Shown here in pieces: positions 1 through 28,804 of a stretch of 33,467 nt of DNA (its first letter is position 1; the number at the start of each line of letters is the position of its first letter). Made by a program: the position numbers and the translations under genes. The DNA lies in contig JBBTCT010000037.1 of the NCBI GenBank assembly GCA_038060895.1, positions 1 through 33,467 on the forward strand, written 5' to 3'. Origin of the DNA: Planctomycetota bacterium (lineage in GTDB: Bacteria > Planctomycetota > MHYJ01 > WSZJ01). The notes under the pieces are model-generated. The model was not told the DNA's origin. It searched no databases and saw only the letters and a program-made list of their open reading frames with translations.

Positions 1-1151
<1,151 letters not shown>

Positions 1152-1175
1152 AAAAGCCGGCGAAGGAGGTGCCTC

Positions 1176-1391
1176 TTGGAAAAGACGATGAAGCGCTGGT
1201 TTGGCCCGTTCGCGACCGGGGTCTTCCTCGGCCTGCTGACGTTTTTGCCCCTCTGTCCCCCCCTTCATGACTCAGGTTTTTCGCTCGTGCAATCCGTGGG
1301 AGCCATTGTCCTCAGCTCCGTAGTAGTCTCGCTCGGCGCCTGCATCGTTATCGACTGGATTGTCGCTCGGCGCGAACACGGCTCGGGCTAG
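1176..1391 (+). CDS. Small hypothetical membrane protein (two hydrophobic segments)
   Basis: Strong SD (AAGGAGGT) 5 nt before TTG at 1176. Two hydrophobic stretches. Fills the prkA-yeaH gap. Confidence 0.55.
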
Positions 1392-1396
1392 ACACC

Positions 1397-2503
1397 ATGG
1401 TCAAGAAGATCGAAAAAGACTTCTCCCGTTTCCGCGCGATTGTCCGCGGCAGAATCAAGAAGGAGCTGCGGAAGTACATCACGCGCGGCGAGCTCGTCGG
1501 CAAGGTGGGGAAGAACCTCGTTTCGATCCCGATCCCGCAGATCCAGATCCCGCATTTCCGGTACGGCAAGAACGACGGCGGGGGAGTGGGGATGGGGCCG
1601 GGGGAGCCCGGGACGCCGCTGGAGCAGGGCGAGCCCGGCGAGGGCACCGGCGCCGGGGACCAGCCCGGAGACCACCTGCTCGAGGTGGACGTGCCGCTGT
1701 CGGAGCTGGCGAAGATCCTCGGCGAAGAGCTTGAGCTGCCGAACATCAAGCCGAAGGGCTCGCGCACGATTGCGGCGGACAAGGAGAAGTACACGGGCAT
1801 TTCTCGTTCCGGTCCGGAGTCGCTCAGGCACTTCAAGCGCACGTACCGCGAAGCGCTGAAGCGCTCGATCGCGCTCGGCATCTACGACGAGAAGAACCCG
1901 ATCGTCGTTCCGTGGCGCGAGGACAAGCGCTACCGCTCGTGGAAGGTGAGGGAGATCCCGCAGAACAACGCGGTCATCATCTACATGATGGACGTGTCGG
2001 GCTCGATGGGCGACGAGCAGAAGGAGATCGTCCGCATCGAGGCGTTCTGGATCGATACGTGGCTGCGCTCGCAGTACAAGAAGATCGAAACGCGGTACAT
2101 CGTCCACGACGCCGTCGCGCGCGAGGTTGATCACCACACGTTTTTCCACGTGAAGGAATCCGGCGGCACGAAGATCTCCAGCGCGCTCCAGCTGTGCAAC
2201 GACATCATCGAGCGCGACTTCAATGTCCAGGAGTGGAACATTTACCCGTTCCATTTCTCCGACGGCGACAACTGGGGCTCCGAGGACACGCGCCGCTGCA
2301 TCGAGCTGCTCGAGCAGCGGCTCTTCCCGGCCTCGAACGTCTTCTGCTACGGCCAGGTGAAATCCGCGTACGGATCAGGCCAGTTCAAGAAGGACCTCGA
2401 CGAGCGCTTCGGCCAGGAAGACCCCCGCATCATCACCAGCGAGATCAAGGACCGAGAGGGGATCTACGACTCGATCAAGGACTTCCTGGGGAAGGGCAAA
2501 TGA
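1397..2503 (+). CDS. yeaH: YeaH/YhbH (DUF444) vWA-like protein
   Basis: Gly-rich GxGxG...GDQPG segment, [13 protein letters not shown]-like motif, ESGGT and [11 protein letters not shown]. Lies between prkA and spoVR. Confidence 0.92.
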
Positions 2504-4032
2504 GCGGGAGCACGCGCGGGATCAAGGGCGGGAATTCGCGCTCGGGCGGGCTGCGCGAGGAGATCTCGAAGTGCGCGTCGAAGATCCGCGAGTATGCGCT
2601 GGGGTACGGGCTGGACCCGTTCGACACGTCATTTGAGCTGATCGACCATGACGAGCTGAACGAAGTGGCGGCGTACGGCGGGTTCCCGACGCGGTATCCG
2701 CACTGGCGGTTCGGGATGCACTACGAGGAGCTGGAAAAGGGATATTCGTTCGGGTTGCAGAAGATCTATGAGCTTGTGATCAACAACGACCCGTGCACGG
2801 CGTACCTCATGAAGTCGAATTCGATGGTGGACCAGAAGCTCGTCATCTCGCACGTGTACGGGCACAGCGACTTTTTCAAGCACAACTACTGGTTCTCGCA
2901 GACGAACCGCAAGATGCTCGACCAGATGGCGAACCACGGGACGCGCCTGCGGCGCTACGTGGAGAAGTTCGGCGAGACGGTCGTGGAGGACTTCCTGGAC
3001 GCGTGCATGTCGATCGAGAACCTGATCGACACCCACTCCGTCTATTCGCCGAAGAAGCGGAAAGTCACCGAGCACGTCGAGGACCTGGAGCGCGACGTGA
3101 CCCCGCGGAAGATCCGGTCCAAGGACTACATGGACCGCTTCATGAATCCCAAGGACTTTGTGGACCGCCAGAAGAAGGCGATCGAGGACGAGATCGCAAA
3201 AAAGAGGAAGCTGCCGGAGCATCCGGAGAAGGACGTGCTGCTGTTCCTGCTCGACAATGCGCCGCTGGACAACTGGCAGCGCGACGTGCTGGCGATCGTG
3301 CGCGAGGAGGCCTACTATTTCGCGCCGCAGGGCATGACCAAGATCATGAACGAGGGGTGGGCCTCGTACTGGCACTCGAAGATCATGACGGAGAAGGTGC
3401 TCTGCGACGCCGAGGTGATCGACTATGCGGAGCACCATGCGGGGACGCTCGGATCGCGCCCCGGCGTGCTGAACCCGTACAAGGTCGGCATCGAGCTCTA
3501 CCGCGAAATCGAGGAGCGCTGGGACAAGGGGCGCTTCGGCTCAGACTGGGAGCGCTGCGACAACATGCAGCAGCGGCGCGAGTGGGACCTGAAGCTGGGG
3601 CTTGGGAAGAAGAAGATCTTCGAAGTCCGGATGATCCACAACGACCTGACGTTTATCGACGAGTTCCTCACGAAGGAATTCTGCGAGAGGCACGAGCTGT
3701 TCGTGTTCCGGCACAATCCGCAGACGAACCGCATGGAAATTGCCGACCGCGAGTTCGCGAAAGTGAAGGAGCAGCTCCTGTTCCGGCTCACGAACAGCGG
3801 TTACCCGATCATCCGCGTCGAGGACGGGAATTTTCGCAACAGGGGAGAGCTCAAGCTGGCGCACCAGCACGCGGGGCTCGACCTGGACGGGAAGGAAGGG
3901 CGGGACACGCTGAGGAACCTGTTCCGGGTCTGGAAGCGGCCGGTGCATATCGAAACGACGGTGGAAGGGGAGAAGAAGCTGATGTCGTTTGATGGGGAGA
4001 AGGTGGCGGAGGAGGCGGTGGAGGAGGAGTAG
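2500..4032 (+). CDS. spoVR: SpoVR/YcgB family protein
   Basis: [47 protein letters not shown] and LNPY motifs. Start placed at ATG 2500, an ATGA overlap with the yeaH stop. Confidence 0.93.
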
Positions 4033-12014: not shown

Positions 12015-13367
12015 ATGGCTGACGCTGCCACCGTCTCGAAGCTCCGTGACATCATCGAGAAAGACGAGATTTCCCTCGCGCAGATCATGGAAGCCCGCCG
12101 CGAGACCTATGGATCCATCGAACGCCGCCACGAGCTGGCCCGCATCGTCGATGGCAAGGACGTCGATCTTGAGAAGAAGCTCGGCGACAACAAGGGCCTC
12201 GGCCGCAAGGCTGCCGGCCAGTGGATCCTTGGCCGCACCAAGGAAGCGCTCGAGACGTTTTCCCACGTGCGCCCCTCGAAAGAGTCGCTCTTCGTCTCCG
12301 CGCTCGCGGCGATCGAAGCAAACGACCCTGAAAAGGCGCTCGAGTCGCTCGACAAGCTGAAGAGCCTCGACCTCGCCGACGGCGACGCCGTGCTGGTCAC
12401 GGGCGCTCGCTTCGAGGCGATGGAGAAGCAGGGGAAGCACGAGGAGATCCTCGCGGCGATCCCGAAGGCGATCAAGTCGCACGGCGAGCATCCCGACCTT
12501 CTGTACCACGCCGGAATGTGCTGCGACCTCACCGGCGCATACCCGGAGGCCGAGAAGCACTACGCACGCGCCCTCGAACTCGACCCGAACCACGAGCCCA
12601 CGCTCTTCCGGCTCGCGTACAACCACGACCTGCGGGGTGAGGACAAGGAAGCGCTGGAGGTTTACGAGCGCCTTCGCCTGATTCGCCCGCCGCGGGTTGC
12701 GACGCTGCTCAATCTCGGCGTTCTGTACGAAGACCGGGGCGACTACATGAAGGCCTCGGACTGCTACGAGCAGGTCCTCGACGTCTACCCGAACCACCAG
12801 CGCGCCCAGCTCTACTACAAGGACGCGCGCGCTTCACTCGGCATGTACTACGACGAGGAAGCGAAGCGTAAGGAAATGAAGTGGGGCAAGCTGCTGTCGA
12901 CGCCGATCGCGGAGTTCCAGCTGTCGGTGCGGAGCCGCAACTGCCTGGCACAGATCAACGTGATGACGCTGGGGGACATGGTGCGGAAGACGGAGGAGGA
13001 GCTGCTGACGGTGCGGAACTTCGGCGACACGTCGCTGAAGGAGATCCGGGAGCTGCTGCAGTCGAAGGGGCTGCGGCTGGCGAGGCCCGGCGAGGCCGGG
13101 ACGGAGCCGGTGCTGCCGTCCGACGTGCCGGCGCCGATGCCGGTCGTGGCGCGCCCGAAGGAAGACGTGCTGCAGAAGCTCATCGCGGAATTCGAGTGGA
13201 GCGCGCGCGCGAAGAAGGCGCTGGAAGGCCTCGGCGTGGGCGTGCTGGCGGACCTGACGATGAAGACGGAGAAGGAGCTGCTGGCGGTGAAGAACTTCGG
13301 GACGACGTCGCTGAACGAAGTGAAGCAGAAGCTGGCGCAGTACGGGTTGTCCCTGAAGGAAGGCTAG
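12015..13367 (+). CDS. TPR protein with two RNA polymerase alpha C-terminal domains
   Basis: TPR-like repeats (YARALELDPNH, NLGVLYEDRGDY..A..CYEQVL). Two alpha-CTD motifs: LSVRSRNCL...EEELL.VRNFG.TSLKEI and WSARAKKAL...EKELL.VKNFG.TSLNEV. No alpha-NTD, so this is not rpoA itself. Confidence 0.88.
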   Translation: MADAATVSKLRDIIEKDEISLAQIMEARRETYGSIERRHELARIVDGKDVDLEKKLGDNKGLGRKAAGQWILGRTKEALETFSHVRPSKESLFVSALAAIEANDPEKALESLDKLKSLDLADGDAVLVTGARFEAMEKQGKHEEILAAIPKAIKSHGEHPDLLYHAGMCCDLTGAYPEAEKHYARALELDPNHEPTLFRLAYNHDLRGEDKEALEVYERLRLIRPPRVATLLNLGVLYEDRGDYMKASDCYEQVLDVYPNHQRAQLYYKDARASLGMYYDEEAKRKEMKWGKLLSTPIAEFQLSVRSRNCLAQINVMTLGDMVRKTEEELLTVRNFGDTSLKEIRELLQSKGLRLARPGEAGTEPVLPSDVPAPMPVVARPKEDVLQKLIAEFEWSARAKKALEGLGVGVLADLTMKTEKELLAVKNFGTTSLNEVKQKLAQYGLSLKEG

Positions 13368-16181: not shown

Positions 16182-17558
<1,377 letters not shown>

Positions 17559-17575
17559 GGGGGCGGATTGTATCC

Positions 17576-17717
17576 CCCTCCAAGAATTGATCGTGCGAGA
17601 AAAGACCTGCAGGTCAGGCTCCGTCGGCCCGGGCGTGGTGACTTGTGCGGCTACGCTCAATCGGGCCGACTCCGCCCGACCCGCAGGTCTTTTCTCGCAC
17701 GTTCAATTCTCGGAGGG
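17576..17717. repeat. 142-bp long inverted-repeat element (MITE/REP-like hairpin)
   Basis: Arms 17576-17618 and 17675-17717 match at 39 of 43 positions as reverse complements. Inner stem GTCGGCCCG / CGGGCCGAC. Confidence 0.85.
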
Positions 17718-17728
17718 CCTTGTTACTC

Positions 17729-18208
17729 CTACGGCACCCGGTCCCTTGACGACTCGGCGCGGCCCTTGATCGGCAGGGCGTCCGAGTCGACCAGCGTGAC
17801 GAGTCGCACGACCAGGCGCGACGGGTCGCCTCCGAGGGACTCGAAGGCGACGCGGGCGACCACGACGCGGCCGCTCGGGTTGCGCTCGATCTGGTAGGCG
17901 GAGAGCTTGAGTTCTCCTGAGGTGAAGCCGCGCCGCGAGTACTGGGGCGGCGCGAATTCCGGCGTCGGCTCGACAGAAACGACGTGGACCAGCATGCGGT
18001 CGTAGACGAGCGTGATCGTGTAGGCGCCGAGGTCCCGGTCGCCGGTGTCGATGGAGATGTCCACGGGCTGCGGCCGAGTGAAGCCCGGCTTCGGTTCAGC
18101 AGACCTGCCGGCCGGCCGATCTTCGCGAACCGGCGACGCCTCGTCGCTGGCGCTGGAAGCGCATCCGGCGAGGACCGCGGCGAAGGCGAGGATCGAGAAC
18201 CTCTTCAT
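17729..18208 (-). CDS. Lipoprotein with cohesin-like beta-sandwich domain
   Basis: Lipobox VLAGC. The pattern VDISID....LGAYTITLVYD...V.VVSV....G.LKLS.......SG....ARVAF......S.L....LVD.D follows the cohesin strand pattern. ATGA overlap with the upstream gene. Confidence 0.72.
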   Translation of the reverse strand: MKRFSILAFAAVLAGCASSASDEASPVREDRPAGRSAEPKPGFTRPQPVDISIDTGDRDLGAYTITLVYDRMLVHVVSVEPTPEFAPPQYSRRGFTSGELKLSAYQIERNPSGRVVVARVAFESLGGDPSRLVVRLVTLVDSDALPIKGRAESSRDRVP

Positions 18209-18954
18209 TTGAGGTCCTCCTTCTCCGCGATGCGCTTCGCCGCGATCAGCGCGTCGGCGACGTCGGTGACTCCGTCCCCGTTGAGGTCCCGGGAGACGGG
18301 CTCGCCCTCGCCGAGAACCGTGCGCATGATGTCCATGCAGTCCGCGACCGTTACGTCGGCGAGCAGGCCCGCTGGCTCGGGAAGCCGCGGCGGAGGAGGG
18401 GTTCGATCGGGCGGCTTGGGAAGCGGCGGCAGTTCGCCGCCGGCGAGGAAGCCTCTTCCGCCGGGTGGAGCAGGCTCAGGATCGGGCGAGGGAGGCGTGG
18501 GGTCCGGCTTCGGATCCGCGGGGACGCCCACTTTAGGGTCGTCTGGAGGTTTGACGGGGGGGATCCCTGGGATTCCGGGGTCCGGGGGTTGGCGGTCGGC
18601 AGGGGCGTCCACTTGTGCTGTCGCTCGTCCCCCCGCAGGCGGAGTTTCGTGGTCCGACCTGTACTTGAGCCCGCCGATCACGGCCGCGAGCAGAACCGCT
18701 GCAGCGGCGGCCACCTGCCACCATCCGGCCGGCCGGCGGCGAGCCGCGTCGGCGGCCAGCTGCGGGATGGCCGCCCGGATGATCATGTCGTTCGCGTCCG
18801 GCACAGGCCGCTCGTCGGCGAGGGCGCGCAGCGCCCGGACCGCAAGCGTCACCGCGCGCTGCCGCTCTCGGCACTCCTCGCACCCCATCAGGTGCGAAGA
18901 GGCCTCCGCTGTAGGCGCAAGCATGAGATCGTTTGTGAGTTCGTCGCAGGTCAT
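18205..18954 (-). CDS. Zinc-finger (ZAS) anti-sigma factor with TM helix, Pro-rich linker and C-terminal dockerin-like domain
   Basis: MTC.E...HLMGCEECR (HxxxCxxC), TM WWQVAAAAAVLLAAVIGGL, a long Pro-rich stretch, then VTVADCMDIMRTVL...DLNGDGVTDVADALIAAKRI. Directly after an ECF sigma gene. Confidence 0.85.
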   Translation of the reverse strand: MTCDELTNDLMLAPTAEASSHLMGCEECRERQRAVTLAVRALRALADERPVPDANDMIIRAAIPQLAADAARRRPAGWWQVAAAAAVLLAAVIGGLKYRSDHETPPAGGRATAQVDAPADRQPPDPGIPGIPPVKPPDDPKVGVPADPKPDPTPPSPDPEPAPPGGRGFLAGGELPPLPKPPDRTPPPPRLPEPAGLLADVTVADCMDIMRTVLGEGEPVSRDLNGDGVTDVADALIAAKRIAEKEDLK

Positions 18955-19016
18955 GTTTTTCTTGCTGGCATTGGCTTCGGTGGGAACAGCCTCCGCCAGC
19001 TTCTTGTACAGCGCTG

Positions 19017-19565
19017 CTACAGGGGTTCAGTTCGCAATTTTCTCTGAAAATGCCCTTTCAAAAGCTCCAATCCGTTATGAATCCGCGATTTCACCGTCCC
19101 GACCGGAACGTCCAGCACTTCACTGATCTCCTCGTAGGGCAGGTCCTCGAAGAAACGAAGCGCCAGCGCCTCCCGGTAGACTTCGGGCATCTCCGCCAGG
19201 GCTTCCCGGACCTTGGCTGCCAGCTCGGTCCCGGCCGCGTGAGACTCGGGACCTGCCCCCGGGTCCGCCGCCGTTTCTTCCGTGATCGGCGCCGCCGAAC
19301 GTTTCTTTCGCCGGCGCAACTCCGTGACCGACAAGCTCGACACCACCTTGTACAGCAGCGTCGTGAACTTCGCGCGAGGCTCCCACTCGGGCGCCTTCCG
19401 GAACACGTAGAGAAACGCCTCCTGCACCACGTCTCCGGCCGCGTCCGCGTCTCCCAGCATCCCCGTCGCGTGCCGCATCGCCCGATCCCGGTTTCGCTCG
19501 TACAGCTGCCGGAACGCCTCCTCGTCGCCGCGTCGGCAGCACGCCATCAGCTCCTCGTCGGTCAT
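19017..19565 (-). CDS. ECF (sigma70 group 4) RNA polymerase sigma factor
   Basis: MTDEELM.....GDEEAF..LY, region 2 A.DVVQEAF and F.T.LY, region 4 YREAL.LR....L.YEEISEVL.VPVGTVKSRI. ATG 19565 overlaps the upstream stop (ATGA). Confidence 0.93.
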   Translation of the reverse strand: MTDEELMACCRRGDEEAFRQLYERNRDRAMRHATGMLGDADAAGDVVQEAFLYVFRKAPEWEPRAKFTTLLYKVVSSLSVTELRRRKKRSAAPITEETAADPGAGPESHAAGTELAAKVREALAEMPEVYREALALRFFEDLPYEEISEVLDVPVGTVKSRIHNGLELLKGHFQRKLRTEPL

Positions 19566-22500
19566 TCCGCCATCGCGCGGAGTTTCGAAGCGACTTCCCG
19601 CGCGCGCGCCTCTGCCGTGCGGGCGCCGGCGGCCTGGAGGGTGGAAGCGGCTTCCGTCGCGATTTCGGCGGCTTCCCGGGCTTCGTCTCGAGTGCCGGGA
19701 GACGAGGCGAGCAGGGCGGCCCAGGAAGCGCGGACGAGGGCGAAGGGGAGTGCGAGCTCGGAGTCGCGGAGGGTCTTGACGGCGCGGGCGTAATTGCGCA
19801 GTGCGCCTTCGCGATCGCCGTTGGCGGCGCGGCAATCGGCGAGACCGGAATAGACGCGGCCGATGAGCCCCGCGTCGGGCCACTTGTGGCCGAGGTGCTC
19901 GAGCGCGGCGTGGAAATGGGCCCGCGCTTCTGCCGCGCGGCCGGCCCGGAGAGAATTCTCGGCGCGTGCCGCCGGGAGGAGACCGGCGAGTTCGGGGGTA
20001 TTTGATGAAGCGGCGGCGAGGTCGAAGTACTGCGAAGCGCGCGCGGGGTCGCCGAGGGCGGAGTGAGCCTCGCCCAACGCTATGGCGGCGCGCGCGAGAC
20101 CGGACCGGGAGCCGCAGCGGTCGAAGGCGGCCTGTGCGGCGGCGGCGTGCTCCCGGGCGGCGTCGTAGTCCTCGGCGGCGAAGTCGGCGCCTGCGGCCGC
20201 GAGGGCGGCGCGCGCGGTGGTCGCGGGCGCGCCGGCGTGAGCGCAGGACTGAAGGGCAAGTGCGGATTGTTCGCGTGCCGCGGTGCCGCGGCCCGCGGCC
20301 GTTCGCGCCTGGACGAGCAGCGCGCGGAGTTCGGCCTCGAGGACGCGGTCGCCGCACCCCTCCAGTGCGCTCTCCACCCGGGCGGCGGCGGTCAGGGCGC
20401 GGCCCTGGAGGAGCTGGCAGCGTGCGAGCGTAAGAAGCGCCTCCGGTGCGCCTCCGCGCTCCAGCGCTTCCGTCGCGTCGGCTTCCGCCTGCCGAAGTTC
20501 ACCTTTCGCGAACCGGAACGCGGCGAGCCCGGCGAGCGCGGGCCCGGCGAGACCCGCGGCGTCCGCGCCGTGGCGCGCCGATTCGAGGCGCATTCCCGCA
20601 GTCGCCAGGTCGTCGGCCATCATCGCCAGCTTCGCGAGCAGCAATTGGGATGAAACCTCGTCCCGCTTGTCCTTCGGCTTGTCTCCCGCCATCGCAAGCG
20701 CATCGGCCGCCTCGCGCCGCCTTCCCAGCAGCAGATAGATCCGGGCCAGGTCAAGGCGAAGCGCCGGCATGCGCTCGGCTGGCGGCGTGCTCGAGAGCAC
20801 GCCCTGGAACGCGCGAAGCGCCGCATCGGGCTGCCCCGAGGCCAACAGCGCGCGCCCGAGCCTCTCGGCCTGCGCCACTGCCTGCCCTTTCGCCCGCGTC
20901 CGCTGCAGCCACGGCTCCGCCTTCTCCAGCCATGCCCGTGCTTCCGCCGGACGCCCCGTTTCCAGCGCCGCGTCCGCCGCCCGGTGCGCGCAATCCACGG
21001 CGCGTTCCGGCGTCGTCCCCTTTAGCGCGACTGCGGCCGCGCGCTCGGGATGCGATTTGTCCAGGCGCTCCAGCGCCGCCGCGCAACGATCGTGCATCGA
21101 CTGCCGGTCCCCGAGCGGGATCTCGCCGTAGACGCGCGAACGGAAAACGGGCGACACAAGCAGGAAGGCTCGCTTCCCCTTCTCGTCCTGCTCCGCGACG
21201 AGTTTCTGGGCGCTGAGTTCGTGGGTGGCGTGAAAAAGATCGTTCTGGCCGATCGCCGCAAGCTCCGAGAGAACGTCGAACGGAAGCCCGTCCTCGGAAA
21301 TCGAAAGCCACCGGACTAGTCCCGACGACCGCGCGTTGAGGCCGCGGAAGCGGTTCCAGAGCACTTCGCCCAGCCCCGAAACAAGGTCGTCCTCCGTCAG
21401 CGGGCCGCGCTTCTTCAGCCGCCAGAGTCCCGCGTCCTCGGCGACGAGCCCCGCCGTCGCCAGGTGCCTGCAGATCTTCTCGACCTGGTTGAGGTCTCCC
21501 TCCGTGACGCGCGCGACCTCGGTCGCGATCCGCGCTTCGGCGCGCGGCGGCTCGCCGCTTCCGTTCCATTTCAGTTCCCGGGCGAGAAGCGGGCCGAGCA
21601 TTTTGCGGAGGTCGTCGTCGGGCAGGCGGGGGACGAGGAATTCGCTCGCGAGCTTGCTGGTGCGGAAGCGCGGGTAGACCCGGGCCCACGGATTGGTTTC
21701 GGCGGCGGGGGAGAGGGAAGCGGCGGCGACGAGGACGAGCGGGCGTTCGCGGGTGAGCGTTGCGACGCGCTCGAGCACGGCGAGGGTTTCGGAGTCGGCG
21801 AGTTCGACGGCGTCGAGCGAGATAAAGAGCGGCCGGAGGTCGAGAACGGCGCTGAGAAGCTCGACGACGAGGTCGCGCATGCGCGCGTCGGTGACGGTGA
21901 GGTCGAAATTCCGGTTATGGGACAAGGCGAGCTTGCGGAATGCGTCGCCGAAGCGTCCGAAGTCCGGCGCGAACTTCATGGCGAGTTTCGTGTACGCGAG
22001 GAAATCCACCGCCTCGACGGCCCGGAGCGCGGAGAGGGCAATCGTGCGCCAGGGCGCGAAGTACTCGCCGAGATCGCCGGTGCAGCGGGCCTCGATGAAG
22101 TGGAAGTTGCGATACGAATTGCGGGACGCAAATTCCTCCATGAGCCGCGACTTTCCGGCGCCGGGCTTGCCGCGCACGAGCAGAAAGGCGCCCTTTCCAC
22201 GAGGGGCGTCTTCGAGTGCCTTTTCCATGACCTGAAGCGTGTTGGCGCGCCCGACGAACGCCGGGCGGGCCGGCGCCGCGGCAGGGAGTGGCGTGGCCGG
22301 GGCGGGAGCCGAGGCGACGGCGGCCGCCGCGCGCGCCGGCTCCGTCACGGTCGCGCCTCGAGCCGCCATTTCTGCCGTCAGATCCACGATCGGGAGGGAG
22401 GGTTCGGAGCTGTACTGCTTTTCGGCGGCGGGCGGTGTCCGTCCGGGCGCAGGCATTTCGTGTTCGTCGCGTCCCTCAAGCCTCTCCGCGGCTCTCCGCG

Positions 22501-24169
22501 CCTCGGCCGCTTCCGCCAGCCTCGCCCGGCACCGGTCGAGCCACGTTCTCGCCTCCTCGCGCGCCGGATCGAGTCGCAGGGCTTCCATGAACCGCGCCAT
22601 CGCGCCTTCGAGGTCGCCGGAGGCGAAACGAACAAGCCCCGCTCGCGTCGCCTCGAGCGATTCGCCAGCGGGCCCGCGCGCGGACGCCTCGGCCATCCCT
22701 GCGACCTCCGCGCGCGCCAGCGCTTCGCCGCATCGCTCCGCGTATTGACGCGCCTCCGCGTCCGTCGGGTCGGAGGCCAGCGCCTCCAGGAAGGCCGCAG
22801 AAGCCTCGCCGTGTCGGCCGGCTTCGAAGGCCGCGATGCCGCGCGTCCGGGCCGCGGCGGCCTTCTCCCTCGCCACTTTCATGGCGACGGCTTCGGCGGC
22901 CGCGCGTTCCTGCGCTTCGTAGCGGTAGCGCTTCGCCTCCAGCCGGTCCGGATTCAGGCGCAGCACGCGCTCGAACGTTGCGGCCGCTTCTTCCCAGCGC
23001 CTCTCATTGAAGTGCGTCAGTCCGAGCCGGAGGTTGTCCTCTTCGAACTGCGTCTGTTTCGTCCGGTCGCGCGCGACTTCGCTGACTTCGAGCTGGCGGA
23101 CGCGGGCGATGCGGCGGTGGCGGCGAGTTTCGAGGTGCGCGGGGTCGAGGCGGAGGGCGGCGTCGAATTTTTCGACGGCGTCGGCGTAGCGCTGGTTCGA
23201 CAGGAGTGAAAACCCGGCGGAATAGAGCGCTTCGACCTGCGCGGCCTCGTCGGGGGAAGGGACCCGCGCCGAGGCGAGGGCGGCGGGGGGGCGCAGAAGC
23301 GCGAGGACGTCGGCGCCGGCGGCCCGCGGGCGACCGGAAAAATCGGCGGCGACGTACTCCAGGGCGCGGAGGAAGCGGTCGGCGTCGGGGAAGCGCTCCG
23401 CGGGGTCCTTGGCTAGCGCGCGCAGCGCAAACCCGTCAAGTTCCGCGGGAATGCCGGGAGCGATCTGGCTGGGCGGGCGCGCGGCCTGCGTGAGGTGTGC
23501 CCGGTAAATCTCCATCGCGGAATCGCCGTCGAACGGAGGCTTGCCGGTCAGCGCTTCGTACAGAATCACTCCGAGCGCGTAGATGTCCACGCCGGTCGTG
23601 ACCTCGCCTTCGAACTGTTCCGGCGGCATGTACTTCGGCTTCCCGACGATCGACTTGCTGACGGCCAGCGCGGGGTCCTCGATCGCCGCCGCGATCCCGT
23701 AATCCATCACCTTCACGACGCCGTCCGGCCGCAGCAGGATGTTCTCGGGCGTCAGGTCGCGGTGGATGATCGGCGGCCGCCGCGACTGCGAGTACTGCAC
23801 CGCGCGCGCCGTCTGCGCGACGATGTCAAGCGCCTGCGCGGGGTCAAGCCGCCCGCTTTCCCGCAGGCGGCGCCGAAGCGTCGGCCCGGGTACGTACTCC
23901 ATCGCGTAACCGCAGAGCTGAGGCTCGTCGAAGGCGGACAGCACCCGCACGATGTTCGGGTGATCGAGCGACGCCGTGATCCGCAGCTCCGACAGAAACC
24001 GCTCGCGGAATCCCTTCTGCTCCATCACATGCGCGTGCAGCACTTTGACCGCGCGGTCAATGCCCAGCAGGGGGTCCGAAGCGCGATAGACCGTTCCGAA
24101 TCCGCCGCTCGCCAGGCGTTGCCGGAGAACGTAGTTCCCGACGGAGAGGCCCGTGAGGTCCGCGGCCAA
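19562..24169 (-). CDS. Large cytosolic Ser/Thr kinase - TPR - STAND (AAA_16-like) NTPase - TPR protein
   Basis: Kinase SGGFG, AVK, HRDLTPEN, DYG and YMPPEQ. Several TPR pairs (ALRLDP, VLRLNP). FVGR and Walker A GKPGAGKS. Long Ala-rich TPR-like C-terminus. TTG start 7 nt after the upstream stop. Confidence 0.85.
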   Translation of the reverse strand: MAADLTGLSVGNYVLRQRLASGGFGTVYRASDPLLGIDRAVKVLHAHVMEQKGFRERFLSELRITASLDHPNIVRVLSAFDEPQLCGYAMEYVPGPTLRRRLRESGRLDPAQALDIVAQTARAVQYSQSRRPPIIHRDLTPENILLRPDGVVKVMDYGIAAAIEDPALAVSKSIVGKPKYMPPEQFEGEVTTGVDIYALGVILYEALTGKPPFDGDSAMEIYRAHLTQAARPPSQIAPGIPAELDGFALRALAKDPAERFPDADRFLRALEYVAADFSGRPRAAGADVLALLRPPAALASARVPSPDEAAQVEALYSAGFSLLSNQRYADAVEKFDAALRLDPAHLETRRHRRIARVRQLEVSEVARDRTKQTQFEEDNLRLGLTHFNERRWEEAAATFERVLRLNPDRLEAKRYRYEAQERAAAEAVAMKVAREKAAAARTRGIAAFEAGRHGEASAAFLEALASDPTDAEARQYAERCGEALARAEVAGMAEASARGPAGESLEATRAGLVRFASGDLEGAMARFMEALRLDPAREEARTWLDRCRARLAEAAEARRAAERLEGRDEHEMPAPGRTPPAAEKQYSSEPSLPIVDLTAEMAARGATVTEPARAAAAVASAPAPATPLPAAAPARPAFVGRANTLQVMEKALEDAPRGKGAFLLVRGKPGAGKSRLMEEFASRNSYRNFHFIEARCTGDLGEYFAPWRTIALSALRAVEAVDFLAYTKLAMKFAPDFGRFGDAFRKLALSHNRNFDLTVTDARMRDLVVELLSAVLDLRPLFISLDAVELADSETLAVLERVATLTRERPLVLVAAASLSPAAETNPWARVYPRFRTSKLASEFLVPRLPDDDLRKMLGPLLARELKWNGSGEPPRAEARIATEVARVTEGDLNQVEKICRHLATAGLVAEDAGLWRLKKRGPLTEDDLVSGLGEVLWNRFRGLNARSSGLVRWLSISEDGLPFDVLSELAAIGQNDLFHATHELSAQKLVAEQDEKGKRAFLLVSPVFRSRVYGEIPLGDRQSMHDRCAAALERLDKSHPERAAAVALKGTTPERAVDCAHRAADAALETGRPAEARAWLEKAEPWLQRTRAKGQAVAQAERLGRALLASGQPDAALRAFQGVLSSTPPAERMPALRLDLARIYLLLGRRREAADALAMAGDKPKDKRDEVSSQLLLAKLAMMADDLATAGMRLESARHGADAAGLAGPALAGLAAFRFAKGELRQAEADATEALERGGAPEALLTLARCQLLQGRALTAAARVESALEGCGDRVLEAELRALLVQARTAAGRGTAAREQSALALQSCAHAGAPATTARAALAAAGADFAAEDYDAAREHAAAAQAAFDRCGSRSGLARAAIALGEAHSALGDPARASQYFDLAAASSNTPELAGLLPAARAENSLRAGRAAEARAHFHAALEHLGHKWPDAGLIGRVYSGLADCRAANGDREGALRNYARAVKTLRDSELALPFALVRASWAALLASSPGTRDEAREAAEIATEAASTLQAAGARTAEARAREVASKLRAMAE

Positions 24170-24176
24170 GGGTTGC

Positions 24177-26060
24177 TCAGTCCCTGACGCGGAATTCCAG
24201 GCCGGAGGGCGTCACCAGCTTGAACCCGCGCGCCTCCCGCTTGTACTCGAACTCGCGCCCCGTGGCGGGATCTTCAAACCCCGTCGGGATTTCTTCCGGG
24301 TACGTCCCCGAGGTCGCGCGGACTTCGCGGACTTTCATGGCGATCCGAAGCGCCGTGCGCGCGGTCATGGCGGAGAACGACCGGGCGCGCAAGTCGGTGA
24401 AATTCGAGAAGGGGCCGGGGCCGGTCCGAAGCGCGACCAGGTCCTCGCGCCGGGCGGCGTCGGGGCGGCTGCAAGCGCCGCGCACTTTGGCCGCGAAATC
24501 CTGCGCCTCGTGGACGACGTCGTACATGGCCTGCACCCCGCCTTCCAGCGACTCCACGGGTTCAGGGCCGAGAATCGGGAAACCTGCCAGCTGCAGGTCC
24601 AGCAGCGCCCGCGCTTCCTTGGCGCCGATCGTGATGGCCTCCAGCCGTGTCGCTTCGCCGGTCGCCGCGGCCTCGATTCCCGCAGGGTCAGGGCCGAGTC
24701 CTTCGATCGTCGCGCGCAGCCGCTGAAGCTGGGCCGGCGAGAGTTTCGGAAGCGTGTCCATGATCGACTTCGCCTGGGCTTCGACGATCTCGGCGGCCGC
24801 CATGCTGAAGTCGATGCGTCCCGCCCGGGCGAGGTGCCGCGCGAGTTTCAGCGCGGACACGTGGTCGTCGATGTCGCCCTTGAGCGACTTTCCGAGGCGC
24901 GCGAGGTCGCGTGCCAGCGGTGCGACGCGATTCATGTCGTCGGGGCCCAGCCCCGCTTCGAAGTTGTCGAGCTTTGCGCCGGCGCGGATCATTTCGAGCG
25001 CAGGTCCGTCGGCGAGATCGCAGGCGCGCCAGTAGCTTCCCGCGGCGTTCTGCTCGCCTTCGGGTGAAGGGGCCGTCACCCGCATCAAACGGGACAGGTC
25101 GAGGGTTCCAACGGCGGTTCGGCCGTCGGCGCTGAGCCCGATCAGCTGCCCTTTCAGGTCGAAGATCACGGCGCCGGACTGAACGCCTTCGATTTTCGCG
25201 GTCCAGACCTCGGGTCCGACTTTTTCCCACCCGCGCGCGAACACGTTGCCGACGACGCCGGCCGGGGAGAGCGCGACCAGCGGGTCCTTCTCAGGCAGCG
25301 GCCCGTAAGCCGGCCGTGCGGCCTTCACGTGGACGCCATCCACCTTCCACAGCGCGACGCCGCGCAACCGGTCGCGCGCCACCGCCCGTGCCACCCACTT
25401 TTTCCCGTCGTAGTCCACTTCCAGCCCCACGGACCCCATCGCCGCCTTGCCGCAGACCCAGATCTGTCCCTCGGCCGACGCCCAGACCCCGACGCCACCC
25501 GCGGAATTCGACCAGACCGCAGCCACGCTGGGCCCCTGGTCGCGCGCGATATCCTCCGACGTAGGCGCCTTCGGCTCCGGCGGCCTCACCGGATTCTGCG
25601 GCGGCTCCGCGAGCTTCTCCTGCTCCTTCTTCGAGAGCCACTTGCCCTCGACTTCCCGATACCCCAGCTCGATCAGCCGGCCGCGCGCGCGCGCGTGGTC
25701 CGTCTGAAGCGCCAGCGCCTCGATGTAGTGTTCGCCCGCCTTGTCAGCCAGCCCGTTCTTCACGCACCAGTCCGCGAGCTGCACCATCGAATCCGGATTC
25801 TTGCGGTCGGCCAGCATGAGCCGGCCTTCGTAGAGCTGCTCCGGCGAAGCAGCGCTCCTGTCGATCTTGTCCACCAGGTTCATCTGGAACGTCAGCGCGG
25901 CCCCGTGTTTCCCGATGTCGATCTTCACCTCGGTGCCCGTCTGGGTGATGATCTTGCCCTCGATGATTCTGCCGTCCTTCAGGTAGATCTTGTCGGCCAG
26001 GGCAGGGAGGGGAAGGACAGCGAGGACCGCGAGCACGAAAAGGAGGGGGGCTTGGCGCAT
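24177..26060 (-). CDS. Secreted multidomain protein: N-terminal DxIYLKDG domain, degenerate trypsin/HtrA-like domain, GspG-like C-terminus
   Basis: Signal peptide ending ALA, DKIYLKDGRIIEGKI, LADWC..NGL. Trypsin-like scaffold from PSV to SGAVIFDLKGQLIGL. C-terminal G.YP....DP.TG..FEY. Confidence 0.65.
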   Translation of the reverse strand: MRQAPLLFVLAVLAVLPLPALADKIYLKDGRIIEGKIITQTGTEVKIDIGKHGAALTFQMNLVDKIDRSAASPEQLYEGRLMLADRKNPDSMVQLADWCVKNGLADKAGEHYIEALALQTDHARARGRLIELGYREVEGKWLSKKEQEKLAEPPQNPVRPPEPKAPTSEDIARDQGPSVAAVWSNSAGGVGVWASAEGQIWVCGKAAMGSVGLEVDYDGKKWVARAVARDRLRGVALWKVDGVHVKAARPAYGPLPEKDPLVALSPAGVVGNVFARGWEKVGPEVWTAKIEGVQSGAVIFDLKGQLIGLSADGRTAVGTLDLSRLMRVTAPSPEGEQNAAGSYWRACDLADGPALEMIRAGAKLDNFEAGLGPDDMNRVAPLARDLARLGKSLKGDIDDHVSALKLARHLARAGRIDFSMAAAEIVEAQAKSIMDTLPKLSPAQLQRLRATIEGLGPDPAGIEAAATGEATRLEAITIGAKEARALLDLQLAGFPILGPEPVESLEGGVQAMYDVVHEAQDFAAKVRGACSRPDAARREDLVALRTGPGPFSNFTDLRARSFSAMTARTALRIAMKVREVRATSGTYPEEIPTGFEDPATGREFEYKREARGFKLVTPSGLEFRVRD

Positions 26061-26551: not shown

Positions 26552-28804
26552 CTACTTCGGGGCCTCGTCCTTCCTAGGCTCCTCCACCTTCTTCGGCATC
26601 ACTTCGTAAGCCTTGCCTGAAACCACGACCACAACGTGGTCTCCAAGCGCCAGCCACTTGGCGACTTCCGGCTTCGCCGCAAGCAGCTTGAAGTACTCAT
26701 CGGACAGGTACTCGACCTTCAGCGTCTCCGCCTTCCCGTCCCACTTCTGGTCGTACCACCCTTCGTCCGTCCCGTAGAACGTCTTCCCGCCAATCACCTG
26801 CACTGCGCTCTTCGTCTGGCCCGTCCGCGCGTCCTTCCGCGCGAACCCGCCCGACGGCTTGCCCGGCTCCATCGCCTGCCCCTTCTTGGCCTTCTCCGCT
26901 TCCTGGCTCGCCTCCACCGCCGACTCGCCCTTCGCGCCCAACTCCATCCCGGCTGCGTCGGCGGCCGGGGCATCGGAGGCTTTGTCTTCGGCTTCGATCC
27001 GGCGAAGCGCTTCGTCAGCGCCCCTCAGGCGGCCACCGGCGGCGCCGGCCTGCTGCTGGACTCGCGCGTTGTCTTCCAGCACCAGCCATGAAGTGTATTT
27101 CGTCATCACGCCGAACTCCTTCGCCAGCGCGACGATCTCCTTCTTGAGCTCTTCGTTCTCACCCTTCAGCCGGATCGCATCCATCAGATGGCCGATCTTG
27201 CTGATCGCCCAGAGGCGAGGAATCGAGTCGTGCGAAGCGTTTTCCTTCGGGAATCCCGCCTCGTACACGAATTCGCGGGTCTTGCCGTTCACGGAGCCCT
27301 TGAGCTTGATCGAGCGCGAGCCGTCGCCCTTGAAGCGCCCGAAAACCGCGATCTGCTGGCCTTTGAACACGTCGGAGAGCTGCTTCGGGTAGATGTCGTA
27401 GATCTCGGCCGACGCGCCGCCGAATTCGATCTTGATGTCGGACAGAACCGGAGCGCCGATCTTCTCGTAGTACCCCGCCATCTTCGTCTCGAGCGATTCC
27501 GTCGGCGTGATGTACTCGCGAAGCCCGCGGTTTTCCTCGGCGATCCGGTCGAGCAGGCCCACGTTCAGCTCGAAGCCGACGCCCAGCGTAAAGATACGGG
27601 CCATCTTGCCGTTCGCGTCCCGCGTGATCTTCACGATCTTCTCCGGATCGGTCTCGCCCAGCGTCGGCTCGCCGTCCGTCATGAAGATCACCATGTACGG
27701 CCTTGAAGCGTCGCCCTGGTTCATCGAGAGCGCCATCTGCATGGCCTCGGAGATGTTGGTGCCTCCGCGCGCCTTGATCGCATCGATGAACTTTCCGGCG
27801 TCCGCGAGGTTCTCCGCGCTCACCTCGACCAGCGCGTCCTTCCACTTCACGGCCTCCGTCGAGAATCGCACGATATTGAAGCGGTCCCCGGGGTTCAGCG
27901 TCTCCAGCCCGGCCTTGAGCGCCTTCTTCGCCTGCGGCATCCGGTCTTCCTCGGCCATCGACATCGAGTTGTCGATCACGAAGCAGACGTCGCGCTTCAC
28001 CAGTTCCGCGTCCGTGGCTTCGGCCTTGGGCGAGAGCATCAGCATGAAGTACCCGTCTTCGCCGGCCTCACGCTGGGCGACCATGTTCATGCCGAAGTCG
28101 CCGTCCTGCTGCGTGAAGTAGAGGAGGAAGTCCTTGTCTGGCAGCACGTTCGCGGCTTCGTACACCACCGTGCCTTCGAGATCGTTCTTGCGGGCGACGT
28201 CCACCGAGTGCGTCGGGCTCATCAGCGACTTCAGCGGCACGTTCGACTTCACCTGGACCGCCACGCGGCACTCGTTGAGCGCCTTCGAGCTGAATTTCTC
28301 GGTGTTCAGCGGATACCGGTAAACGCACAGCCCGCTGTCAGCCTTGATCGTTTCGCTGTACTCGAGCTTCACGCGCTTTTCCTCGCCCGGCAGGATCGGA
28401 AACACGCGCAGCTTGAACATCTTCGTCCCGACGTACTCCAAAAGCGCCGGATCTTGCTGCGACCGTACGATCTCCTCGTAAGTCGCCCGCGCCTTGTCCG
28501 CATCCAGCAGCTCCGCTTCCATCTCCTTGCCGTCGATCCACATCGACAGCTTCGAGACCGAAGCCCCCGCCGGAATCGGGAACATGTACGTCGCTTCGAC
28601 GTTGAACCCGTTCGGGTTCACGAAAACCTGGTCAACTTTGGTCGTCGCCACCTGGTTGTCGATCACGACATCGACTTTGTGATACTTGACCGCCATCGGG
28701 ATCGCGTTGCGCGTGGGGCGGTCGATCTGCATGAAGCCGTCGGCGCGGGCCAGGGTGGCCAGGAGCGCGAGGGCGGCGAGGGAACGCATGATGCGGGACA
28801 GCAT
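26552..28804 (-). CDS. Secreted VIT and vWA domain protein (inter-alpha-trypsin inhibitor heavy chain-like)
   Basis: Signal peptide (ARA). VIT domain (VATTKVDQVF.NP....EATY.FP.P, A...YE.IV....DPALLEY). vWA MIDAS DNSMSM, GGTNI and FMTDG. Also RLWA and TKYTSWLV.E. SD GGAGG. Confidence 0.92.
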   Translation of the reverse strand: MLSRIMRSLAALALLATLARADGFMQIDRPTRNAIPMAVKYHKVDVVIDNQVATTKVDQVFVNPNGFNVEATYMFPIPAGASVSKLSMWIDGKEMEAELLDADKARATYEEIVRSQQDPALLEYVGTKMFKLRVFPILPGEEKRVKLEYSETIKADSGLCVYRYPLNTEKFSSKALNECRVAVQVKSNVPLKSLMSPTHSVDVARKNDLEGTVVYEAANVLPDKDFLLYFTQQDGDFGMNMVAQREAGEDGYFMLMLSPKAEATDAELVKRDVCFVIDNSMSMAEEDRMPQAKKALKAGLETLNPGDRFNIVRFSTEAVKWKDALVEVSAENLADAGKFIDAIKARGGTNISEAMQMALSMNQGDASRPYMVIFMTDGEPTLGETDPEKIVKITRDANGKMARIFTLGVGFELNVGLLDRIAEENRGLREYITPTESLETKMAGYYEKIGAPVLSDIKIEFGGASAEIYDIYPKQLSDVFKGQQIAVFGRFKGDGSRSIKLKGSVNGKTREFVYEAGFPKENASHDSIPRLWAISKIGHLMDAIRLKGENEELKKEIVALAKEFGVMTKYTSWLVLEDNARVQQQAGAAGGRLRGADEALRRIEAEDKASDAPAADAAGMELGAKGESAVEASQEAEKAKKGQAMEPGKPSGGFARKDARTGQTKSAVQVIGGKTFYGTDEGWYDQKWDGKAETLKVEYLSDEYFKLLAAKPEVAKWLALGDHVVVVVSGKAYEVMPKKVEEPRKDEAPK

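Follow-up and report, generated by a model that had tools for sequence, protein, structure and literature searches.

A candidate cohesin–dockerin partner pair in an ECF sigma/anti-sigma switch of Planctomycetota

A contig of 33,467 nt from a Planctomycetota bacterium (JBBTCT010000037.1, assembly GCA_038060895.1), analysed over its whole length and hereafter called the window, carries three consecutive minus-strand genes at exactly 17729-19565, where the first-pass annotation of this DNA had placed them. They encode an extracytoplasmic function (ECF) sigma factor, a single-pass anti-sigma factor with a dockerin-type tip and a lipoprotein with a cohesin-type domain. We propose that the latter two form a dedicated cohesin–dockerin partner pair which probably gates the anti-sigma factor. 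Computational support for this proposal comes from the gene structures, a predicted cohesin fold, dockerin homology, predicted binding of the two modules and the adjacency of their genes throughout the phylum. The host genome assembly comprises 5.4 Mb and is 86.5% complete, and genome-wide negative results given below refer to this assembled part.

The three genes and their products

The 182-aa product of the leading gene is by sequence a standard ECF sigma factor (sigma-70 group 4), as evidenced by regions 2 and 4 and by scores above the curated cut-offs of Sigma70_r2 (45.0 bits, cut-off 24), Sigma70_r4_2 (65.0 bits, cut-off 25.7), Sigma70_ECF (31.1 bits, cut-off 21.1) and TIGR02937 (98.5 bits, cut-off 42.9). 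The gene for the anti-sigma factor follows directly after a gap of 62 nt. Its product appears to belong to the zinc-binding anti-sigma (ZAS) type, class I, given this gene position and an invariant HxxxCxxC motif accompanied by an invariant C3; all four residues (C3, H21, C25 and C28) are unchanged throughout an alignment of eight sequences (alignment A2). The HxxxCxxC site, the single transmembrane helix and the long Pro-rich spacer described in the first-pass annotation were all recovered by this alignment, a hydropathy scan and an AlphaFold2 (AF2) model, and in the model the dockerin is the only folded part predicted outside the cytoplasm. An exhaustive phmmer search with the anti-sigma factor returned 32 proteins at E<=1e-3, including P0021 and P0022, which align to it over their full length. 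The NCBIfam model NF052375 ('anti-sigma factor') matches at E 7e-8, below its cut-off, and zf-HC2 is not among the Pfam matches of the window protein at E<=1, although it is passed by the relative P0022 (24.6 bits) and by six neighbours from the long-form loci described below (23.3-38 bits).

The C-terminal module of the anti-sigma factor ends in DLNGDGVTDVAD, a complete 12-residue calcium loop with the pattern D223-x-N-x-D-x3-D-x2-D234, in which D223, N225, D227, D231 and D234 are invariant. Of the two tandem calcium loop–helix repeats expected of a dockerin, only this second loop is present, the first being missing or degenerate in the clade of the window with its helix retained (alignment A2). 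The first-pass annotation had read the module as dockerin-like, and the homology stands: the C-termini of the clade (alignment A3) align over 49 columns to a profile of 21 dockerins from related loci, all of which pass Pfam Dockerin_1 (profile A4), with an hhalign probability of 97.6% (E 2.6e-12). Profile A4 in turn matches solved type I cellulosomal dockerins, for example the CelS dockerin (2mte) at E 2e-11. The tip of the anti-sigma factor thus appears from sequence comparison to be a half-degenerate dockerin with one calcium site, below the Pfam threshold.

The start codon of the lipoprotein gene overlaps the TGA of the anti-sigma gene in the sequence ATGA, which bears out the translational coupling noted earlier, and because the genes overlap the lipoprotein should be produced from the same message as the anti-sigma factor. 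Its lipobox (L-A-G-C16), the invariant cysteine and the presence of two LspA homologues in the genome identify the 159-aa protein, as far as sequence allows, as a bacterial lipoprotein. Across ten homologues K2, R3 and the run A14-G15-C16-A17-S18 are invariant and L13 is not, so that alanine at position +2, as reported in the first-pass annotation, is a constant of the family. The rule that associates this residue with outer-membrane sorting is an enterobacterial one and may not be the planctomycete rule. Searches of the databases gave only nine homologues of the lipoprotein, at 63-76% identity; NCBIfam holds no family for it, and its nearest clusters in the ESM Atlas are labelled 'hypothetical protein', with one set carrying Cohesin on 32% of its members, which we treat as a lead only. 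The AF2 model is confident at residues 43-159 and the top Foldseek matches to this model are cohesins. The domain is therefore predicted to have a cohesin-type beta-sandwich fold, in agreement with the cohesin-like assignment made from the letters alone, although at about 110 residues it is shorter than classical cohesins.

Predicted binding and conservation of the pair

Complex prediction with the cohesin domain, the last 58 residues of the anti-sigma factor, one calcium ion and our own alignments yielded an ipSAE interface score of 0.91 in three of three runs, whereas none of three controls scored above 0.01. Contacts agreed between runs at 97% or more, with a predicted local distance difference test score (pLDDT) of at least 84 for the partners. 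During calibration of the tool, 116 of 157 solved complexes attained this mark, as did 2 of 215 mismatched pairs. The predicted contacts involve both dockerin helices and one face of the cohesin sheet, and the contact residues of the dockerin are better conserved than the remainder of the module (mean column identity 0.82 versus 0.68). Binding of the anti-sigma tip to the lipoprotein in the presence of calcium, which the first-pass annotation had envisaged, is thus predicted by modelling.

Neither module has an obvious alternative partner in the assembled 86.5% of the genome. Dockerin_1 has no match there at E<=0.01, and Cohesin has three weak matches, this lipoprotein among them.

A cellulosome was considered and rejected, as the genome has no enzyme-borne dockerin at E<=0.01 and the 24 window proteins scanned by Pfam include no glycoside hydrolase (a few small open reading frames lie outside the scan), the latter matching what had been noted from the sequence alone.

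To place the pair in a wider context, a profile of the lipoprotein/cohesin family (A1) was compared with 401 sampled Planctomycetota genomes from 288 genera, the host genome included. Relatives were found in 32 of the genomes and 29 of the genera (16/243 among genomes at least 90% complete); the membership of G004 and G194, whose matches are the weakest of the 32, is doubtful, since these matches extend over residues 6-65 only and so reach no further than signal peptide and linker, and neither genome was assigned a locus. Genus relatives that were examined keep the order kinase, sigma factor, anti-sigma factor, lipoprotein. Outside the genus, 23 of 26 loci have a single-pass transmembrane protein with a C-terminal dockerin encoded directly upstream on the same strand. 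All 23 of these proteins pass Pfam Dockerin_1 (24.5-49.3 bits) and a sigma gene adjoins 20 of the 23 loci. The neighbourhood survey suggested in the first-pass annotation therefore shows that in other genera, too, relatives mostly have a dockerin-bearing membrane or anti-sigma protein as neighbour, and the triad is not isolated but a member of a phylum-wide family which usually includes a protein of the von Willebrand factor A (vWA) type. In one case (L032, 853-1884 on the plus strand; also L056, 6353-7384) a transmembrane segment, a Pfam-valid dockerin and a cohesin share one reading frame that lacks a signal peptide, representing a natural fusion of both partners.

Chance adjacency was rejected on account of the 23 conserved neighbours in 26 loci together with the fusion.

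These observations also bear on a competing explanation, namely that the dockerin is a stand-alone calcium sensor whose calcium-driven folding sets the turnover of the anti-sigma factor, with the cohesin as target or chaperone. The intact 12-residue loop with its five invariant ligand positions would suit such a role, but the explanation accounts neither for the near-obligate cohesin adjacency (23/26) nor for the L032 fusion or the predicted interface, and we regard it as highly improbable.

A proposed switch and competing explanations

In the model that we infer for binding in the cell, outer-membrane location, direction of control, protease steps and signal, the zinc-type N-terminal domain of the single-pass anti-sigma factor would hold the ECF sigma factor in the cytoplasm, and some 100 Pro-rich residues would project the single-calcium dockerin from the inner membrane into the periplasm. 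There the dockerin would plug into the cohesin of the co-translated lipoprotein, probably at the inner face of the outer membrane. In the plugged state the anti-sigma factor would be stable and the sigma factor silent. Loss of the link, which might follow from non-arrival of the lipoprotein, loss of calcium, a widened periplasm or outer-membrane damage, would leave the free tail open to periplasmic proteases, and intramembrane cleavage could then release the sigma factor as in RseA/RseB. The genome encodes a LolA homologue (29.3 bits, above the cut-off) and homologues of M50 (RseP-like) site-2 proteases (seven matched stretches in four open frames) in addition to LspA, so the machinery for the proposed processing and cleavage appears to be available. 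The opposite polarity, in which binding activates, is possible.

Comparison of loci sorted by their anti-sigma proteins revealed two forms of the system. The long form, comprising the window's genus and ten further loci, has the HxxxCxxC motif in 11 of 11 cases (zf-HC2 above cut-off in six) and about 50-217 spacer residues from the membrane to the dockerin; most members have a coiled coil here, and the spacers of the window, L009, L015 and L029 are rich in Pro, Ala or Gly. The 16 loci of the short form encode proteins of 146-208 residues (the L032 fusion excepted), mostly without the zinc motif, in which only 4-58 residues separate membrane and dockerin. A lipoprotein cohesin is present in 11/11 long-form loci, ten by a strict script and L011 (C-A-G-C) by eye, and in 0/16 short-form loci, whose cohesins are soluble. 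In a tree of the cohesin domains a single branch with 100/99 support splits the two forms. Seven long-form loci (L008, L010, L011, L012, L018, L019 and L022) were also seen to have spacers of 150-200 residues with coiled-coil-type Pfam matches.

Because spacer length is kept within the long form as its composition changes, selection may act on reach rather than on sequence, and the constant occurrence of lipid-anchored cohesins with long spacers leads us to suggest that the lipoprotein resides in the outer membrane and that the complex bridges the envelope. The association of spacer and lipid anchor, as read from sequence, lends indirect support to a reach across the periplasm. A more specific version is conceivable, though we hold it only tentatively: a mechanically strong, calcium-dependent bond and a spacer of set length could couple the anti-sigma factor to an outer-membrane lipoprotein as a trans-envelope tether or ruler. 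If so, periplasm width, outer-membrane attachment, lipoprotein traffic or pulling force would be read out as sigma factor activity, and the system would be a dedicated sensor of envelope geometry with the cohesin–dockerin bond as the force-bearing element of the switch. The periplasm of Planctomycetota is unusually large and variable.

The short form points in another direction, since its spacer-less membrane proteins and soluble cohesins must act near the inner membrane. It is thus conceivable that the window's lipoprotein also lies near the inner membrane and, like RseB, shields the anti-sigma factor from a site-1 protease until a specific periplasmic ligand or a rival dockerin-like protein displaces it, envelope geometry being irrelevant. 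Such a shield would share with the gating pair the predicted binding and would follow the logic of RseA/RseB, with its co-encoded periplasmic partner. It leaves unexplained, however, why a spacer of about 50-217 residues accompanies every lipoprotein form, and the genome has no competing dockerin at E<=0.01; we consider it unlikely.

The genes that accompany the two forms raise the question of whether the dockerin signals at all. The short-form unit consists of an ECF sigma factor, a dockerin-only membrane protein, a secreted cohesin-fold protein and a VIT-vWA protein; in 16/16 short-form loci a VIT-domain protein is encoded within two genes downstream, with VIT and vWA combined in most. This unit shares with the window its cohesin family, both being found by profile A1, and its gene order. 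In the window, by contrast, the anti-sigma factor has a zinc-type domain and about 100 residues of spacer, the cohesin is lipid-anchored and no vWA gene adjoins. Of the ten long-form loci from other genera, three (L034, L038 and L042) continue with a gene for a vWF_A-VWA-YfbK_C protein and one with DUF4349, and the remaining loci have unrelated or uncharacterised genes next or reach a contig end. The dockerin could accordingly be an anchor only, which fixes the cohesin and vWA-type partners to the membrane in a structural or adhesive role and leaves the anti-sigma factor to other inputs. The constant VIT neighbour of the short form, the YfbK-like proteins after three long-form loci and a VIT-vWA gene upstream on the same strand in the window would all fit such an anchor. 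It would, on the other hand, deprive the anti-sigma factor of a sensor, the dockerin being its sole folded extracytoplasmic part, and no vWA gene adjoins the pair in the window's genus. Taken together, we judge a purely structural role to be improbable.

A last competing explanation concerns the protein kinases that flank the triad. The gene immediately upstream encodes a 1535-aa Ser/Thr kinase, and its stop overlaps the ATG of the sigma gene in a second ATGA sequence. A Ser/Thr kinase with a cyclic nucleotide monophosphate (cNMP)-binding domain is encoded 68 nt downstream of the lipoprotein gene, an arrangement kept in L002/L058 and L059 and absent in L003 and L060. Control could be mainly kinase-driven, with phosphorylation by the large kinase and perhaps by the cNMP-binding kinase, and with a constitutive cohesin–dockerin link. 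In addition to the gene coupling and the retention of the kinase–sigma order in the genus, passages in the supplement of PMC7826278 describe the planctomycetal group ECF217 with kinases at position +1 and its subgroup ECF217s1 with a Dockerin_1 protein in the gene context. The kinase flanks are nevertheless limited to the window's genus: there were no kinases among the Pfam-scanned upstream genes of eight of the ten other long-form loci and of seven short-form loci. The anti-sigma domain is moreover intact and retains its zinc ligands, and control chiefly by the kinases is in our estimation rather improbable.

Several results weigh against a gating cohesin–dockerin pair. Both modules of the window fall short of their Pfam cut-offs, the lipoprotein with 13.3 bits against Cohesin (PF00963, E 0.099, cut-off 24.1) and the anti-sigma tip with 12.2 bits against Dockerin_1 (PF00404, E 0.22, cut-off 22.9). 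Seven of ten lipoprotein family members match Cohesin at E<=1 but none above the cut-off, among 25 relatives only two reach E<=0.01, and the family profile of the lipoprotein, when run against the Protein Data Bank (PDB), matched signal-peptide regions only and no cohesin by sequence. Close relatives of the anti-sigma tip score 12.6-21.8 bits against Dockerin_1, as compared with 35.2 bits for P0021 and 43.7 bits for P0022, which are more distant but related over their full length. In the zf-HC2, Dockerin_1 and Cohesin comparisons that the first-pass annotation looked to, the window proteins all stay below cut-off, and relatives such as these two pass zf-HC2 and/or Dockerin_1. The complex score may arise from resemblance to cohesin–dockerin complexes already solved, the use of our own alignments and of a calcium ion lies outside the calibration of the tool, and on the cohesin side conservation is no higher at contact residues than elsewhere in the domain (mean column identity 0.78 versus 0.85). 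With the first calcium loop gone, the pair may depart from classical ones in affinity and in its dependence on calcium. With regard to conservation, three dockerin-bearing loci (L047, L049 and L055) showed no adjacent sigma gene at the thresholds used, and three of the 26 loci have no dockerin neighbour: L024 stops at a contig edge, L033 keeps a remnant of a dockerin helix in the same frame and the upstream gene of L031 is unrelated. The single split on the cohesin tree means that the link between spacer and lipobox represents one evolutionary event. Lastly, the kinases on either side of the triad point to additional or different control. The signalling clasp put forward in the first-pass annotation is supported in part, by the cohesin fold, the predicted binding (0.91) and the conserved adjacency (23/26 loci), so that none of the three outcomes named there as refuting it occurred in these computations; it is to be amended in that the dockerin retains one calcium site, and release of the sigma factor on loss of contact, the nature of the signal and arrival of the lipoprotein in the outer membrane make up its hypothetical part.

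Known systems and the surrounding window

A co-encoded periplasmic protein that binds the periplasmic part of a single-pass anti-sigma factor is familiar from RseA/RseB and sigma-E of Escherichia coli and from MucA/MucB and AlgU of Pseudomonas, where loss of the partner probably permits regulated proteolysis. These systems share with the triad the gene order sigma factor, anti-sigma factor, partner. RseA/RseB contain neither cohesin nor dockerin, however, and have no sequence or fold relation to the pair described here, which consists of a lipoprotein and an anti-sigma factor with a long spacer. A long spacer, Pro-rich or helical, that lets an inner-membrane protein contact its partner in the outer membrane is illustrated by FecR/FecA and TonB/TolA, and in the case of FecR this contact controls an ECF sigma factor. 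Compared with FecR/FecA, the putative outer partner in the window is a small lipoprotein rather than a TonB-dependent transducer, and the contact would be made by a cohesin–dockerin pair.

Closest in their parts are the type I pairs of clostridial cellulosomes (PDB 1ohz, 6kgc, 2ccl, 3ul4). The window differs from them in lacking enzymes and a scaffoldin, in its Gram-negative host, in the presumably periplasmic setting of the pair and in its sigma/anti-sigma wiring. Its cohesin is also shorter (about 110 versus about 140 residues) and is missed by the Pfam Cohesin model, and a dual binding mode is unlikely because the first calcium loop of the dockerin is lost. According to PMC6582324 and PMC10328401, RsgI of the sigma-I/RsgI systems of Clostridium thermocellum senses polysaccharides through modules of carbohydrate-binding type and regulates cellulosome genes. 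As described there, RsgI resembles the window protein in carrying a C-terminal extracellular sensor on a single-pass anti-sigma factor, with a link to the cellulosome world, and differs in that the sensor is not a dockerin with a cognate cohesin and in that sigma-I is not an ECF sigma factor.

Among described ECF groups, the supplement passages of PMC7826278 that report the kinases of ECF217 also list putative anti-sigma factors with vWA and DUF3520 (YfbK_C) domains for ECF226 and ECF289. Judged from these passages, the three groups are similar to the family of the window in their planctomycetal distribution and in a context of vWA/YfbK_C, kinase and dockerin proteins, the more so as a YfbK-like protein follows three long-form triads; the same passages mention neither a cohesin partner nor a dockerin-tipped anti-sigma factor for them. 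The words 'dockerin' and 'cohesin' are absent from the main text of this ECF re-classification. In a paper on freshwater Planctomycetes, the passages concerned assign cohesin/dockerin peptidase proteins to a proposed outer-membrane 'planctosome' and not to signalling. A full-text literature search, with some planctomycete papers beyond its reach, returned no description of a dockerin-tipped anti-sigma factor with a cohesin partner. ECF switches with an accessory periplasmic partner are known, and in the literature searched the parts used here are not linked to signalling. To these the window adds the long form with its zinc domain, long spacer, lipid-anchored cohesin, one-calcium dockerin and kinase flanks, and the contrast to the short form.

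Cohesin–dockerin pairs serve as assembly glue of extracellular enzyme complexes, and to our knowledge no function has been assigned to many of the non-cellulosomal copies that genomes contain. The proposed switch would give such pairs a first regulatory role: of this ECF sigma/anti-sigma system, conserved in about 8% of the sampled Planctomycetota genomes and in many families, the pair would be all that lies outside the cytoplasm. For sigma factor biology this would represent a new and simple sensor design built from two small proteins, and for the Planctomycetota a handle on how their unusual envelope is monitored. The combinations of long spacer with lipoprotein and no spacer with soluble cohesin are natural variants with which the question of spacer length could be addressed, and the pair might be engineered into an orthogonal transmembrane switch.

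Table 1. Coordinates of the triad, its sequence features and selected genes of its surroundings in the window
Feature	Position	Strand	Details and basis
ECF sigma gene	19017..19565	-	182 aa; Sigma70 Pfam matches
Anti-sigma gene	18205..18954	-	249 aa; zinc-type N-terminal domain, one transmembrane helix, Pro-rich spacer, C-terminal dockerin
Lipoprotein gene	17729..18208	-	159 aa; lipobox and predicted cohesin-fold domain
Fourth candidate zinc ligand C3	18946-18948	-	Invariant in alignment A2
Zinc motif H21-x3-C25-x2-C28	18871..18894	-	Invariant in alignment A2
Single transmembrane helix, residues about 75-99	18658..18732	-	RRR before it (cytoplasmic side); hydropathy scan; AF2 helix 78-101 (hydrophobic helix overall about 75-101)
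Pro-rich spacer, about 100 residues	18358..18657	-	AF2: no helix or strand at 102-202, pLDDT 41-59
Dockerin module, residues about 200-245	18220..18357	-	hhalign, alignment A2
Intact second calcium loop D223-D234	18253-18288	-	Alignment A2
Lipobox LAGC (C16), Ala at +2	18161-18172	-	Alignment of 10 homologues
Cohesin-fold domain, residues 48-159	17732..18067	-	AF2 model, Foldseek
Ser/Thr kinase with tetratricopeptide repeats (TPR) and AAA_16	19562..24169	-	1535 aa; Pfam
Ser/Thr kinase with cNMP-binding domain	16182..17660	-	Pfam
Secreted VIT-vWA protein	26552..28804	-	Pfam and translation
Secreted 627-aa protein, no known family	24177..26060	-	Translation; no Pfam match

The positions of the triad, its features and the surrounding genes are listed in Table 1. 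On the minus strand the order runs from the 1535-aa kinase through sigma factor, anti-sigma factor and lipoprotein to the cNMP-binding kinase. The VIT-vWA gene lies 7 kb upstream of the triad, and the order of this gene and the gene for the 627-aa secreted protein upstream of the kinase recurs in the genus relatives L059 and L060 as far as their contigs reach. The G+C content at the triad (0.66-0.70) matches that of the flanking 5 kb (0.63-0.75), so that the triad bears no mark of foreign origin. Inspection by eye of 220 nt upstream of 19 sigma genes showed no ECF-type promoter motif common to the family; TATAAT-like -10 boxes were seen before the sigma genes of L035, L037, L041, L045, L046, L048 and L053. 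An aquifer RNA library (run X11) contained three exact contigs on the window at a depth of about 2, two of them in the kinase gene. The third (18923-19076) extends from the end of the sigma gene across the gap into the beginning of the anti-sigma gene and is at most a weak hint of triad transcription, as carry-over of DNA is possible and a single transcript is not proven; regions that no contig covers carry no information either way.

Elsewhere in the window, a 450-aa protein (12015-13367, plus strand) joins TPR repeats to two stretches that match PF03118 (120.5 bits), the domain at the C-terminus of the RNA polymerase alpha subunit; outside polymerases such a fusion is unusual. Between 29000 and 32000 the G+C content drops to 0.56-0.59, compared with 0.62-0.75 elsewhere, and the open reading frames scanned in this region have no Pfam match at E<=1e-5. 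Genes for PrkA (AAA_PrkA and PrkA C-terminal domain) and a SpoVR-like protein occupy 3-4032 on the plus strand and resemble the prkA-yeaH-spoVR stress gene set.

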